From a phage: a DNA stretch of 64,000 nt. Position numbers and translations under genes: made by a program. Of this stretch, positions 7,110 to 36,212 are shown in pieces. The first letter of the stretch is position 1, and every line of letters begins with the position of its first letter. The notes under the pieces are model-generated. The model did no database searches and was not told the origin of the DNA. It worked only from the letters and a program-made list of their open reading frames with translations. The DNA lies in the sequence record MZ956761.1; one strand, written 5' to 3'.

Positions 7110-7296
7110 CATTAATGATGAATTCATAGCAAATATTGATTACACCGAAGAAGATTCTAGATATGTTGGAATAATTTATATCACATCAAAAGCAGCACAA
7201 GGCGTTGTTTGCATGGCTGAATTTGATGAATACTTTTTAGATTATGATGATATGATAGAATGGTCTAAAAGATACATTAAAAGGAATCTTTTGTGA
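7081..7296 (+). CDS. hypothetical protein (start uncertain)
   Basis: ORF ends in overlap with gene 46 start; start codon ambiguous. Confidence 0.3.
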   Translation: MHTVKFSTFDINDEFIANIDYTEEDSRYVGIIYITSKAAQGVVCMAEFDEYFLDYDDMIEWSKRYIKRNLL

Positions 7297-8981
7297 AGAA
7301 TTTTAAACTAAACCGAGTTAGGTATCAAAATATAATGTCAGTAGGTGGAAATCCTATTGACATTCAACTAGATAAGGTTCAAAAAACTCTTATTACTGGA
7401 CGAAATGGCGGTGGTAAGTCTACTATGTTAGAAGCCATCACATTTGGGCTTTTTGGCAAGCCATTTCGTGATGTAAAGAAAGGTCAATTAATAAACAGCA
7501 CAAATAAGAAAGAACTTTTAGTTGAACTGTGGATGGAATATGATGAGAAAAAGTACTATATCAAAAGAGGACAAAAACCAAACGTTTTCGAAATCACCGT
7601 TAACGGTACACGTCTTAATGAATCTGCCAGCAGTAAAGATTTCCAAGCAGAATTTGAACAGCTTATCGGAATGTCATATGCCAGTTTCAAGCAGATTGTT
7701 GTCCTTGGTACAGCAGGGTATACCCCTTTCATGGGTTTGTCGACCCCTGCACGAAGAAAGCTTGTGGAAGACCTGCTCGAGGTAGGAACATTAGCTGAAA
7801 TGGATAAGCTTAATAAAGCACTAATACGTGAATTAAATTCACAAAACCAAGTGCTTGATGTTAAAAAAGATAGTATTATCCAACAAATTAAAATATATAA
7901 TGATAACGTTGAACGCCAGAAAAAATTAACTGGTGATAACCTTACTCGTCTACAGAATATGTATGATGATTTGGCAAAAGAAGCTAGAACGTTAAAATCG
8001 GAAATAGAAGAAGCTAATGAAAGATTAGTTAATATTGTTTTGGATGAAGACCCGACTGATGCATTTAATAAAATCGGTCAAGAAGCATTTTTAATTAAAT
8101 CAAAAATTGACTCGTATAATAAAGTCATTAATATGTATCACGAAGGTGGATTATGTCCAACCTGTTTGTCACAATTAAGTTCCGGTGATAAAGTTGTTTC
8201 TAAAATTAAAGATAAAGTTTCTGAATGCACGCATTCGTTTGAACAGCTTTCAACNCNNCNNGNNNNNNNNNNAGTATNTCGTTNNTNANTNNNGNGATNN
8301 TNNNAANNNCNANNNGTNNGTTGCTTGCNNNTNNTNTGTNNCNNTNNAAANCANTNNNTNNNCACGACTGTAGATAAAGCTAAAANAGTTAAAGCAGCTA
8401 TAGAANAAGCATCATCTGAGTTTATTGNCCATGCTGATNAAATNGCNCTGCTTNAAGANGAACTTGATAAAATTGTTAAGNCAAANACTAATTTNNTAAT
8501 GGAAAAATNCCACNGAGGAATTTTGACTGATATGCTCAAAGATTCTGGTATTAANGGTGCTATTATTAAAAAGTACATTCCATTATTTAATAAGCAGATT
8601 AACCATTATCTTAAAATAATGGAAGCGGATTATGTGTTTACATTAGATGAAGAATTTAATGAGACAATTAAATCCCGTGGTCGTGAAGATTTTAGTTATG
8701 CTTCATTCAGTCAAGGCGAAAAAGCACGAATTGATATTGCTCTTCTATTTACTTGGCGTGATATTGCTGAAAAAGTTTCAGGTGTTAAAATAAACACACT
8801 AATTCTCGATGAAGTTTTTGATTCAGCAACTGATGTTGAAGGTGTAAAAGCTATTTCAACTATTTTAGATAGTTTAAAAAATACTAATGTTTTTGTTATT
8901 TCACATAGAGACCACGACCCGCAAGCATATGGTCAGCATCTTCAAATGAAGAAAGTTGGTCGATTTACTGTAATGGTTTAA
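7293..8981 (+). CDS. 46: recombination endonuclease subunit gp46 (Rad50-like ATPase); internal tract of ambiguous bases
   Basis: 562 codons, GTG start; Walker A GRNGGGKST; N-containing tract 8255-8540 gives X residues but frame stays open. Confidence 0.9.
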   Translation: MKNFKLNRVRYQNIMSVGGNPIDIQLDKVQKTLITGRNGGGKSTMLEAITFGLFGKPFRDVKKGQLINSTNKKELLVELWMEYDEKKYYIKRGQKPNVFEITVNGTRLNESASSKDFQAEFEQLIGMSYASFKQIVVLGTAGYTPFMGLSTPARRKLVEDLLEVGTLAEMDKLNKALIRELNSQNQVLDVKKDSIIQQIKIYNDNVERQKKLTGDNLTRLQNMYDDLAKEARTLKSEIEEANERLVNIVLDEDPTDAFNKIGQEAFLIKSKIDSYNKVINMYHEGGLCPTCLSQLSSGDKVVSKIKDKVSECTHSFEQLSXXXXXXXVXRXXXXXXXXXXXXXCLXXXCXXXXXXXXTTVDKAKXVKAAIEXASSEFIXHADXXXLLXXELDKIVKXXTNXXMEKXHXGILTDMLKDSGIXGAIIKKYIPLFNKQINHYLKIMEADYVFTLDEEFNETIKSRGREDFSYASFSQGEKARIDIALLFTWRDIAEKVSGVKINTLILDEVFDSATDVEGVKAISTILDSLKNTNVFVISHRDHDPQAYGQHLQMKKVGRFTVMV

Positions 8982-32273: not shown

Positions 32274-32956
32274 TGTTTGATTTTATTATAGATTTTGAAA
32301 CAATGGGAAGCGGTGAAAAGGCAGCTGTTATTGATTTGGCTGTTATTGCCTTTGACCCTAATCCAGAAGTAGTTGAAACATTTGATGAATTAGTTTCACG
32401 TGGCATTAAAATCAAGTTTGATTTAAAAAGCCAAAAAGGACATCGTCTTTTTACTAAAAGCACTATCGAATGGTGGAAAAATCAATCTCCTGAAGCTCGA
32501 AAAAATATTGCACCATCAGATGAAGATGTAAGCACTATCGATGGTATTGCAAAATTTAATGATTACATCAATGCGCATAATATCGATCCTTGGAAATCTC
32601 AAGGCTGGTGCCGTGGAATGTCGTTTGATTTTCCAATTTTAGTCGATCTCATTCGCGATATTCAACGTCTTAACGGCGTTTCCGAGAATGAGCTTGATAC
32701 ATTTAAGTTAGAACCTTGTAAATTTTGGAATCAGCGCGATATTCGTACCAGAATTGAAGCACTTCTGCTTGTTCGTGATATGACCACATGCCCTCTTCCA
32801 AAAGGAACCTTAGATGGATTTGTTGCGCATGATTCTATTCATGACTGTGCGAAAGACATCCTGATGATGAAGTATGCTTTGCGATATGCTATGGGTCTTG
32901 AAGATGCTCCGTCAGAGGAAGAATGCGATCCTCTATCTCTTCCAACAAAACGATAA
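32273..32956 (+). CDS. dexA: exonuclease A DexA
   Basis: 227 aa; DEDD-type 3'-5' exonuclease motifs; T4 synteny. Confidence 0.85.
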   Translation: MFDFIIDFETMGSGEKAAVIDLAVIAFDPNPEVVETFDELVSRGIKIKFDLKSQKGHRLFTKSTIEWWKNQSPEARKNIAPSDEDVSTIDGIAKFNDYINAHNIDPWKSQGWCRGMSFDFPILVDLIRDIQRLNGVSENELDTFKLEPCKFWNQRDIRTRIEALLLVRDMTTCPLPKGTLDGFVAHDSIHDCAKDILMMKYALRYAMGLEDAPSEEECDPLSLPTKR

Positions 32957-32959
32957 AAA

Positions 32960-32993
32960 GTTGTTTACTTCCTCGGTTAGTTGTGGTATTATA
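32960..32993 (+). promoter_or_regulatory. T4 early promoter
   Basis: GTTTACT -35, 17-nt spacer, TGgTATTAT. Confidence 0.7.
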
Positions 32994-33019
32994 ACACCAT
33001 AGCTACTGAGGATAATAAA

Positions 33020-33523
33020 ATGAAAATTTATCGTGTTGAATCATCGTTTAGTATTCTTAATTGTGAAGATGCTATAACAATACGTCGAAATCTTTGTGTT
33101 CAAATAACGCCATACAGGAGTATAATAGATTCATGGAGCGAAGAGTGGTTATTACACGTAGGTTATGATAGACCTAATTTTATGCATCATAGTAATGATA
33201 ACAAAAGAATTCCTCTTCCGCGCGAAGACAAATTATTAGTTAAAAATGCTAATATAGCAATTAATACTAACTTTGAGAAAGAAGAATATGTAGGCGTAGA
33301 TCATTATATTCCCGGATGGTTTATAGCTATTTATCATTTTGCTTTCGCTAGTGAATATGATATGATGAGATGGTTCACACGAGAAGAGCGTGAAGAATTA
33401 TCTTCTAAAGGATTTTATCTTGCTGTATACGAAGTGCCAGATGACCAAGTTATCATTGGCGGACACCAAGTAATGTTCCGCAAATCGCATGCTGAACTCG
33501 TAGATTTTATTGAAATGAGATAA
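33020..33523 (+). CDS. hypothetical protein
   Basis: 167 aa from ATG 33020 after GAGGATAA. Confidence 0.5.
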   Translation: MKIYRVESSFSILNCEDAITIRRNLCVQITPYRSIIDSWSEEWLLHVGYDRPNFMHHSNDNKRIPLPREDKLLVKNANIAINTNFEKEEYVGVDHYIPGWFIAIYHFAFASEYDMMRWFTREEREELSSKGFYLAVYEVPDDQVIIGGHQVMFRKSHAELVDFIEMR

Positions 33524-33525
33524 TT

Positions 33526-34065
33526 ATGAAATTTAATTATAATCCTGAGTACATACCAAATCCGGTAGCTAAACTGATTGATTTTGATGTTGTAAGCACT
33601 TATGTATGCCCTGTTAAACCACTGGAAATTAAGGAAACTACTATGACTACCGCTATTGAAATCGGCAAAACCTACAAACTGGTTGAAACTGAAATTAAAA
33701 CTACTGAACTAGATTTGGGTTATAAAGCATTGACCAGTGTTTTTGGTGAAGGCGAGTTTGTGGTTAAAAGTTTTTCAAAAAGTAATTGGTATGATAAGAA
33801 TAAAGCTTACGTGATTCGAGCACATCGCTTAGATAATGATGAAGTAATTAAAACTATGGCCTTTGAAGCAGAGCTTATCCTCTTCAAAGAAGTTGATCCT
33901 ACTGACCTTTTGACTCATGCAGTAGCTATTAAGACCCCATTTATTTCGGTCTGTGGTTGGGTAACAGACCAATGGATTGAAGATGGTGTTGAACTTCTGA
34001 ACGTTGTTCATGCAGGTGATTTTAGCGTAGTACCTCGTAGTGCAGTGGTAGCTATTTTGAATTAA
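33526..34065 (+). CDS. hypothetical protein, paralog of 34142-34639
   Basis: 179 aa; shares C-terminal domain (TDQWIEDGVELLN...) with downstream ORF. Confidence 0.55.
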   Translation: MKFNYNPEYIPNPVAKLIDFDVVSTYVCPVKPLEIKETTMTTAIEIGKTYKLVETEIKTTELDLGYKALTSVFGEGEFVVKSFSKSNWYDKNKAYVIRAHRLDNDEVIKTMAFEAELILFKEVDPTDLLTHAVAIKTPFISVCGWVTDQWIEDGVELLNVVHAGDFSVVPRSAVVAILN

Positions 34066-34098
34066 TAGTTTACAAACTCTTGGGACCAGAGTATAATG
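34065..34098 (+). promoter_or_regulatory. T4 early promoter with -10 inside a hairpin
   Basis: GTTTACA -35, TATAAT at 34092-34097 flanked by GGGACCA/TGGTCCC inverted repeat. Confidence 0.7.
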
Positions 34099-34141
34099 GT
34101 CCCGTGGAGTATAAAATCTTTTTAACAAGTGAGAGATAACT

Positions 34142-34639
34142 ATGATTATTAATATTGGTGAATTAGCTCGTGTATCTGATAAATCCCGCTCTAAAGCAGC
34201 AGGAAAATTGGTCGAAATTGTAAGCATTCAGCTTAAACACGGCGTTAAAGATGAAGATTCTGAAGTAAAAGTGCGTATCATTCCTAAAGATGGAAAGTCT
34301 AAACCTCAGTTTGGTTATGTTCGCGCGAAATTTCTTGAATCTGCATTTTTGAAAGCTGTTCCCGCTAAAGGAATTGAAACGATTGATACTTCGCATGTAG
34401 GTGTAGACTTTAAGTGGAAACTCGGTCAAGCTATCAAGTTCGTTGCTCCTTATGAATTCGAATTTACTGAAGATGAGGAAGGGGTTGTTCAAAAACACCG
34501 TACTCGCGCTATGTGTGCATACATTACTGATCAATGGGTAGAAGATGGCGTTAAGTTATACAACGCGGTATTTTTAGGAACATACAAAGTCATTCCTGAA
34601 AGTTGGATTAAACACTACAGCAAAGCTCGCTATGCATAA
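34142..34639 (+). CDS. hypothetical protein, paralog of 33526-34065 (possible MotB-family)
   Basis: 165 aa; position between dexA and cef/39. Confidence 0.5.
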   Translation: MIINIGELARVSDKSRSKAAGKLVEIVSIQLKHGVKDEDSEVKVRIIPKDGKSKPQFGYVRAKFLESAFLKAVPAKGIETIDTSHVGVDFKWKLGQAIKFVAPYEFEFTEDEEGVVQKHRTRAMCAYITDQWVEDGVKLYNAVFLGTYKVIPESWIKHYSKARYA

Positions 34640-34663
34640 AGTTTAAAATTTTTCATAAAACTA

Positions 34664-34708
34664 TATACATCAGTAGTTGATTATGGTACTATATCAATAT
34701 CAACTACT
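34664..34708 (+). promoter_or_regulatory. early-promoter-like element with stem-loop (diverged copy of the repeat family)
   Basis: TGGTACTAT -10 enclosed by 10-bp inverted repeat AGTAGTTGAT/ATCAACTACT; weak -35. Confidence 0.45.
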
Positions 34709-34735
34709 GATACAGAAAATAACTTGGAGAATAAA

Positions 34736-35005
34736 ATGGAAAACTTAATTATCATCGAGCAATCTTTCAATGATTATGGTATGGCTTATGGTTATCGTGC
34801 GATAATGGAAGATTCTCGTGGATGTGTTATCGATATTGCTGAATGTAAAGATTTACTGCAGCTTTTGAAGATTGTTCGTAAAAATTGGGATTGTGAAAAC
34901 ATTAAAGCTCGTGTTGTAACGGAAGAAGAAACTGTTTTTCATGATGTAAAATTCGCTAAAGGTGCTGCTACTCTTCTGAAACGTATCGCTCCACTGTTTA
35001 ATTAA
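34736..35005 (+). CDS. hypothetical protein
   Basis: 89 aa from ATG 34736 after GGAGAATAAA. Confidence 0.5.
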   Translation: MENLIIIEQSFNDYGMAYGYRAIMEDSRGCVIDIAECKDLLQLLKIVRKNWDCENIKARVVTEEETVFHDVKFAKGAATLLKRIAPLFN

Positions 35006-35018
35006 TGAGGAAATTGTA

Positions 35019-35234
35019 ATGAAACGTAAAATTGTTCAGAATTGCACTAATGACGAATTTGAAGATGTATTATTTGATCCAGATTTGGTAGTGGTTCAAA
35101 AGGAACATACCGTTAAGTTTACTCACTTGACTTCGGTTTATGTGTATGAAAAGATTGGTGATAAACAACCGATTTATGGTGTATTCCGTGAAATCACTGA
35201 AGACGGTACAACTTACTGGAAGGAAATTTATTAA
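35019..35234 (+). CDS. hypothetical protein (possible Cef by synteny and size)
   Basis: 71 aa, ATG after GAGGAAATTG. Confidence 0.45.
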
Positions 35235-35659
35235 TGGCTATTAAATTTGAAGTTAATAAATGGTATCAATTTAAAAATAAACAAGCTCAAGAAAATTTTA
35301 TTAAAGACCATACTGATAACGGAATCTATGCACGTCGTTTAGGTATGCATCCTTTTAAAATTTTAGATGTTGACCATCTTGGTCGTCCTACTAAAATTGT
35401 GACATCTGCTGGCACAGTTGGATATGCAACACATGGTGATATCCTTGACGAAAACTTTATCTGGCTTTCTACTAACGAAGCTGGGTTCTTTGATGAAGTG
35501 GAAAATCCATATCAGGCAGCTGAAGAGCAAGAGCAGGAAGAGAAAGAGCAAGAACAAATAGAAGATTTCACAGAATTCCCGGTCATGAAAGTTACTATTG
35601 AAAATAATGAACAGGCATGGTCCTTGTATCAGATGTTGAAAGCTCACTTTAAGGAATAA
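35234..35659 (+). CDS. hypothetical protein (possible GoF/ComC-alpha by synteny and size)
   Basis: 141 aa; acidic Glu/Gln-rich segment. Confidence 0.45.
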
Positions 35660-35840: not shown

Positions 35841-36212
35841 ATGTTTAAAATCGGTAAAAAATATCGCATTCGTGAAGGTGAAGAACAGAAATATCTACTT
35901 TCTGCTAGTAATAGGAATAGTTCTATTAATGCTGTAATATTGACTAGTGAATTTATCGTTGAAGATATGAAAGGTCATAATGTTACAATGATTAGTACAG
36001 CATCTGGAAATGATGGAAAAATTCTTCATAGTTGTCAGAGTAATGTTCTAATTTATGATGAAGAATTTGACTTCTTCAAAGAAGTTTCCGAAGATTTTGA
36101 TTTTGAATGTACTATTACTATGAAATCTGGTGACCCTCTTTCTTTTACAGTTAAAGATGAAAGAAGTCGCTTGAGAATTATTAGTCTTCTTCAAGCCATT
36201 AAATTTAAGTGA
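35841..36212 (+). CDS. hypothetical protein
   Basis: 123 aa ORF directly following. Confidence 0.5.
   Translation: MFKIGKKYRIREGEEQKYLLSASNRNSSINAVILTSEFIVEDMKGHNVTMISTASGNDGKILHSCQSNVLIYDEEFDFFKEVSEDFDFECTITMKSGDPLSFTVKDERSRLRIISLLQAIKFK

Follow-up and report, generated by a model that had tools for sequence, protein, structure and literature searches.

The motB.1–motB gene pair of a T4-like phage: a probable tandem with a shared C-terminal domain and a covarying hairpin around its early promoter

The early protein MotB of bacteriophage T4 is abundant and toxic, binds DNA tightly and without specificity, co-purifies with H-NS and StpA on DNA, alters H-NS footprints and improves phage fitness (PMC7827196, PMC6070864). 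MotB and MotB.1 have a conserved C-terminal domain and different N-terminal domains; 102 homologues were placed in four categories, a duplication was suggested (Patterson-West et al. 2021, PMC7827196), and the paralogue relationship has thus been known since 2021. The N-terminal barrel of MotB was assigned to the KOW class (PMC7827196), and the N-terminal domain of T4 MotB.1 (residues 1-82) was placed in an LSm-like family of SH3 topology together with GoF and Frd.2 (Kim et al. 2025, PMC12152347). In T4, primer extension reveals the motB promoter, and the motB leader serves as a model substrate of the RegB endoribonuclease (Durand et al. 2006, PMC1702504), so that the promoter and the RegB leader between the two genes are likewise already known from T4. 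The present analysis concerns a 64,000-nucleotide stretch of phage DNA (sequence record MZ956761.1, hereafter the window), in which two neighbouring open reading frames (ORFs), ORF A and ORF B, had been proposed in an original prediction to be a paralogue pair, possibly of the MotB family, separated by an early promoter. The window corresponds to Escherichia phage ADUt, a T4-like Tequatrovirus, to which the region is 100% identical; identity of the same region to hundreds of T4-like phages is 93-96%. The gene pair itself adds nothing new to the published picture, and what is worth passing on is the covariation of the hairpin around the promoter, the interpretation of the shared domain as acidic and SH3-like, and a frameshift in the T4 reference sequence.

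Both ORFs are present where they had been placed:
33526..34065, + strand: ORF A, a motB.1 allele of 179 residues (ORF list; phrog_2333; position between the motB.2 homologue and motB, as in T4)
34142..34639, + strand: ORF B, motB, 165 residues (PF17613; 90% identity to T4 MotB)

The Pfam motB family (PF17613) covers the full length of ORF B (residues 1-165 on model positions 1-162; 333 bits, E = 3e-100), which is 90% identical to T4 MotB (165 versus 162 residues) and lies, as predicted, at the T4 motB position. The suspected family membership extends to ORF A through its C-terminal module alone, where PF17613 matches residues 141-174 (model positions 120-153) with 34.1 bits against a cut-off of 25, and the same C-terminal match is found in all of the approximately 197 clusters of ORF A homologues. 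Over its full length, ORF A matches phrog_2333 (E = 4.5e-80), which also contains T4 MotB.1. The gene order of the locus is dda, two small ORFs, dexA, the motB.2 homologue, ORF A, ORF B, a 93-residue ORF, cef, goF and gene 39, and the position of ORF A directly downstream of motB.2 and upstream of motB agrees with the T4 annotation. ORF B contains the motif VSxxSRSKAAG, which is invariant among 54 homologues; because this motif and the KOW-like N-terminal barrel are absent from ORF A, the latter is not a MotB orthologue. Instead, ORF A is the commonest motB.1 allele, and its annotation as a “transcriptional regulator” has no support. The same label is given in the ADUt record to the motB.2 homologue (32981-33523), which has no Pfam match, falls only in PHROG 1106 of unknown function and does not contain the MotB C-terminal domain. 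From the N- to the C-terminus, ORF A is composed of an extension with a short motif, a predicted LSm-like barrel, a linker and a MotB-type C-terminal barrel. The locus very probably represents two early genes of a T4-like phage in tandem, motB.1 (33526-34065) and motB (34142-34639), with this architecture, and the activities of T4 MotB (DNA binding, co-purification with H-NS/StpA, toxicity) are assumed for ORF B on the basis of the 90% identity.

The segments that relate the two proteins are as follows (AF2, AlphaFold2):
33907..34059, + strand: ORF A copy of the shared C-terminal domain, residues 128-178 (hhalign; AF2)
34418..34621, + strand: MotB copy of the shared C-terminal domain, residues 93-160, enlarged by a beta-hairpin insertion (hhalign; AF2)

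The two related peptides quoted in the original prediction are found at residues 144-170 of ORF A and 127-152 of ORF B. A BLASTP comparison of the two proteins returns 16 identities in 32 positions (E = 4e-11), and a profile-profile comparison between 29 relatives of ORF A and 54 relatives of MotB aligns residues 128-178 with residues 93-160 (hhalign probability 98.6%, E = 5.5e-16), with an insertion in MotB. Additionally, the MotB-like PHROG 1671 matches residues 116-177 of ORF A (E = 5e-17). As judged by these alignments, the shared module is a whole domain of about 50-68 residues that extends beyond the quoted motif of 27 residues. The original prediction had itself considered that the similarity might be a chance match or a ubiquitous low-complexity motif, and a few large tail-repeat proteins do match the profile core weakly and repeatedly. 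However, both the BLASTP and the hhalign alignments are significant, a hidden Markov model of the core recovers no ORF other than A and B from the 933 six-frame ORFs of the window, and the domain profile matches only 31 representatives in a search of 1.84 billion proteins, nearly all of which are small with the same C-terminal placement, which leaves this explanation with a negligible probability. After Pfam scans, large tail-repeat and leucine-rich repeat proteins with several core matches each (P0256, P0260, P0263-P0265) were set aside as repeat artefacts. The DNA of the two copies of the domain is 55% identical, and only 34% of the third codon positions agree, which indicates that the duplication is old and has been kept by protein-level selection. 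Recent gene conversion between the two copies is ruled out by this low nucleotide identity and by a longest exact run of 8 nucleotides.

The N-terminal halves of ORF A and ORF B give neither a BLASTP nor an hhalign alignment, and a full-length duplication with a diverged N-terminus is therefore unsupported at the sequence level. The proposal that these halves are unrelated thus holds for their sequences, but both are predicted to be small SH3-like beta-barrels. The relatives recovered by the domain profile carry the C-terminal domain behind different modules: a KOW-like domain immediately ahead of a MotB.1-type C-terminal domain; KOW, the short motif and the C-terminal domain; the motif, an LSm-like barrel and the C-terminal domain, as in ORF A; LSm, the motif and the C-terminal domain; or the motif followed by two LSm-like barrels and the C-terminal domain. 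Other family members have extra leading domains, and in some intermediates a MotB-like hairpin insertion lies inside a MotB.1-type C-terminal domain. Since the same C-terminal domain stands behind different N-terminal modules, the domain shuffling onto a common module that had been suggested is directly supported. Both proteins go back to an old duplication, after which the N-terminal domain was replaced.

Three features in the N-terminal part of motB.1 bear on this variability:
33568..33633, + strand: short conserved motif, ORF A residues 15-36, AKLIDFDVVSTYVCPVKPLEIK (quoted also as LIDFDVVSTYVCPVKPLEIK; identity across homologues; recurrence)
33643..33894, + strand: variable N-terminal barrel of ORF A, residues 40-123, predicted to be LSm-like/SH3-like (AF2; Foldseek; phrog_2333)
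33512..33952, + strand: cassette without DNA similarity to T4 (blastn of the window against T4; flanks 93-94% identical)

The motif, with the consensus hhDxD[VIT]xx[MT]YxxPhxPh, is predicted to be disordered within the N-terminal extension of ORF A and has a mean identity of 96.7% across 119 homologues. It recurs in eight other representatives (clustered at 50% identity) at three positions relative to the other domains, namely before or after the LSm-like barrel or between the KOW and C-terminal domains, and it looks like a movable linear motif. No part of ORF A is less conserved than the barrel that follows (mean identity of 71% for residues 40-123, compared with 93.5% for the extension 1-39 and 98.6% for the C-terminal core 141-172). 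In the AF2 model, this barrel consists of strands and one helix at residues 60-73, with a predicted local distance difference test score (pLDDT) of 76-88, and a Foldseek search of BFVD with the ORF A model finds T4 MotB.1 (P39415; E = 4e-6, TMt 0.61). Residues 1-116 of T4 MotB.1 align to the part of phrog_2333 that matches ORF A from about residue 40 onward. The cassette encodes residues 1 to about 142 of ORF A, and its right-hand boundary lies at the GWVTDQW core; between these conserved flanks, the N-terminal coding part of motB.1 has been exchanged for another allele. The ADUt-type N-terminal domain is the commoner of the two, with 387 phage records versus 160 for the T4 type.

The strong conservation of the extension also bears on the start codon. 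Translation of ORF A might begin at the internal ATG at 33643 (Met40), yielding a protein of 140 residues and leaving the 39-codon extension untranslated: an AAGGA Shine-Dalgarno-like sequence lies 7 nucleotides upstream of this ATG and is better than that at 33526, residues 1-41 are disordered according to AF2, one database cluster (P0112) is annotated as the 140-residue form and T4-type MotB.1 has no N-terminal extension. However, the extension is open in all long homologues and is better conserved than the barrel that follows, its motif is internal in other family members, in which translation is required, and the ATG at 33526 lies 2 nucleotides past the upstream stop codon, which suits translational coupling. 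On the strength of the region-wise identities, a start at 33526 is favoured, and initiation at Met40 is quite unlikely.

The role of the shared domain was considered in light of structure models and charge, for which one further segment is needed:
34142..34345, + strand: basic KOW-like N-terminal barrel of MotB, residues 1-68 (AF2 strands 8-67; charge; PMC7827196)

The structure prediction of the shared domain that the original prediction had called for yields an all-beta domain in both proteins. In the MotB model (mean pLDDT of 80), residues 8-67 form a barrel, residues 70-83 are disordered, and residues 97-159 fold into an all-beta C-terminal domain for which the pLDDT is about 90; the ORF A model (mean pLDDT of 72.5) contains a disordered segment at 1-41, a barrel with a helix at 45-123 and a five-stranded C-terminal domain at 132-178. 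The last C-terminal strand follows a 3-10 turn in each model, and strands 3 and 4 have no helix between them. From the AF2 models and from fold searches with the whole proteins, we infer that the shared module is an SH3/Tudor-like barrel rather than an OB fold. Searches of the PDB by sequence or profile, with both proteins and both family alignments, return no relative of solved structure; a Pfam KOW match is present in the distant relative P0262.

In the families of ORF A and MotB and in the distant representatives alike, the conserved core of 36 residues carries a net charge of -2 to -5 (0 in one family). ORF A as a whole is acidic (isoelectric point of 4.9, net charge of -8). MotB has an isoelectric point of 9.2, and its positive charge resides in the KOW-like N-terminal domain (net charge of +5, isoelectric point of 9.8). 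Because the core is acidic, it is probably not a DNA-binding surface, and the DNA-binding role at which the original prediction hinted for the shared module is doubtful. The C-terminal domain might instead serve both proteins as a common scaffold or protein-protein module, acting through self-association or a shared partner, and the N-terminal barrels would supply the nucleic-acid contact or ligand specificity: the basic KOW domain of MotB would contact DNA, and the LSm-like domain of the acidic MotB.1 might contact RNA or another ligand. This mechanistic proposal is offered tentatively, as a working idea of slightly less than even likelihood.

Several points weigh against it. The C-terminal domain was assigned to the cold-shock OB fold by HHpred (Patterson-West et al., PMC7827196), and the insertion in the C-terminal domain of MotB carries K and R residues (VVQKHRTR). 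The fold searches were performed on whole two-domain models, the matches of which are not attributable to either domain, and the AF2 confidence is only moderate for the N-terminal domain of ORF A. The C-terminal domain of MotB may bind DNA after all, and T4 lacking motB.1 has no laboratory phenotype (Kim et al. 2025, PMC12152347), so that any function of MotB.1 is putative. Under the 2021 proposal, the shared domain would be an OB-fold nucleic-acid binder, and MotB.1, equipped with the same binding module as MotB, would likewise bind DNA or RNA; this reading is considered rather unlikely. An acidic SH3/Tudor-like barrel, by comparison, shifts which domain should be tested for the nucleoid activity of MotB.

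The spacer between the two genes measures 76 nucleotides and is identical throughout in ADUt and T4. It contains three elements:
34069..34097, + strand: sigma-70-type early promoter of motB (consensus scan; identical in T4; T4 primer extension; the wV7 record annotates a promoter here)
34081..34104, + strand: hairpin with a 7-bp stem (34081-34087 with 34098-34104) and a 10-nucleotide loop that holds the -10 hexamer (RNA fold; covariation)
34106..34116, + strand: RegB/S1 endoribonuclease target GGAGTATAAAA in the motB leader (10 of 11 positions of GGAGRAYARAA; identity with T4)

The early promoter proposed between the ORFs, with its -10 element inside a hairpin, is borne out in both respects. 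The hexamers TTTACA (34069-34074) and TATAAT (34092-34097), separated by a 17-nucleotide spacer, agree with 11 of 12 consensus positions, constitute the best match in the region and give motB a strong early promoter of its own; the latter hexamer lies in the hairpin loop. The RNA fold of the hairpin region has an energy of -26 kcal/mol (z = -4.2). Across eight phages of Tequatrovirus, Dhakavirus and Gaprivervirus, the 56 pair cells are standard without exception, five of the seven pairs are changed on both sides, and G-U intermediates occur on the sense strand; the covariation score is reached in none of 500 shuffles, and slid registers are only 32-55% paired. The hairpin is not present in Mosigvirus or in phiE142. 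This unusually clean covariation is new, and a role for a hairpin that encloses the -10 element is absent from the T4 motB literature that was consulted.

The hairpin is thus a selected structure. Since RNA initiated at the promoter starts at the 3' edge of the hairpin, the simplest reading is that of an RNA element in read-through transcripts. It could alternatively be the intrinsic terminator of motB.1 or a functionless accidental palindrome, in that it is GC-rich, lies 16 nucleotides past the motB.1 stop codon with a U-rich run about 12-15 nucleotides later, and is missing from Mosigvirus relatives that retain the gene pair. However, a terminator scan of 32900-35100 returns no site, no U-run lies directly behind the stem (the U-rich run starts about 12 nucleotides after it, and the canonical terminator reading is unsupported), and an accident is excluded by the covariation described above, which makes this pair of explanations improbable.

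RNA initiated at the motB promoter carries the RegB site at 34106-34116 in single-stranded form. A more speculative view has two parallel parts: as a functional read-through RNA element, the hairpin would mark or stabilise the 3' end of the motB.1 mRNA and hide the RegB site through an extra CUCU/GGAG pairing, leaving the site exposed in promoter-initiated RNA, and the acidic C-terminal domain would be a hetero-association module, with the MotB.1 alleles as partners or modulators, exchangeable for one another, of the nucleoid-binding MotB. The extended CUCU/GGAG pairing is not conserved in Dhakavirus, which weakens that part of the idea, and the joint view as a whole is considered a long shot.

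A further point concerns the T4 reference sequence. The reference NC_000866/AF158101 reads ATTGGAAGATGG, whereas ADUt and two aligned resequenced T4 genomes (MT984581 and KJ477684) read ATTGAAGATGG. The extra G lies at about 7290-7300 of NC_000866, homologous to 33975-33985 of the window. In the other resequenced T4 records, and likewise in RB55 and RB59, a 531-nucleotide query matches over 530 nucleotides only, which is consistent with the same one-base difference. The extra G cuts the reference MotB.1 to 119 residues (…GGWVTDQWIGRWR*); in T4 records without it, MotB.1 has 143 residues and a complete C-terminal domain, and a relative of 144 residues (P0245) is present in the protein library. 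Published work on MotB.1 gives the 13.8-kDa form of 119 residues, so the protein studied so far appears to be the product of an extra reference base and to be without most of the shared domain. Similarly, in the RB69 reference (AY303349, 1580-2080), the C-terminal domain of MotB.1 is readable only with two frame changes, and the annotated 29-residue ORF012c is the tail of this domain, which explains the “Category 3” peptide of 29 residues. In phage SP1, the C-terminal domain of MotB.1 is split in a manner similar to that in RB69.

Several neighbouring features were recorded along with the gene pair. A perfect 13-bp inverted repeat at 34669-34711, just downstream of motB (RNA fold z = -4.85), is shared with T4 and might form a second structured element between genes. 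T4 lacks a 200-bp segment (34744-34943) that gives rise to a gene of about 90 residues between motB and cef (ORF 34724/34736-35005), which belongs to phrog_3720 and has no Pfam match; the Shine-Dalgarno sequence of this gene, GGAGAATAAAA at 34726-34736, matches the RegB consensus perfectly. Exact matches to GGAGRAYARAA occur four times in the window (15481, 22016, 34726 and 42680), all on the + strand, compared with 0.33 expected by chance. Further downstream, GoF (35234-35659) and an additional ORF of 123 residues (35841-36212) match phrog_622; the latter (E = 3.5e-30), which also has weak matches to phrog_2333 and Pfam FRD2, is an extra GoF/Frd.2-like paralogue of the LSm family, and T4 has no gene at this position.

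Among the described systems, SH3-like small beta-barrels such as Tudor, PWWP, chromo, KOW and EF-P domain I share only 8-23% identity with the domains discussed here, a fold-class resemblance only. GoF and Frd.2 have other C-terminal domains and no MotB-type barrel. The comparison with T4 MotB proposed at the outset separates the two ORFs. ORF B shares its genomic position, promoter and leader, and differs in having three additional residues as well as a few substituted ones in the C-terminal hairpin. ORF A has only the C-terminal domain in common with T4 MotB; the KOW-like N-terminal domain is missing, and the protein is acidic where MotB is basic. The counterpart of ORF A is T4 MotB.1 (P39415), a “Category 2-4” MotB.1 in PMC7827196 and a member of the LSm-like family of PMC12152347, which occupies the same locus and also belongs to phrog_2333. 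The N-terminal domains of these two proteins have similar predicted folds without similarity at the BLAST level, and ORF A alone adds a 39-residue extension with a conserved motif. By contrast, their C-terminal domains are nearly identical (…GWVTDQWIEDGVELLNVVHAG…VVPRSAVVAILN): ORF A has the MotB.1-type core GWVTDQWIEDGVELLNVVHAG…VVPRS, and its last 37 residues are identical to those of the resequenced T4 MotB.1 at all but three positions.
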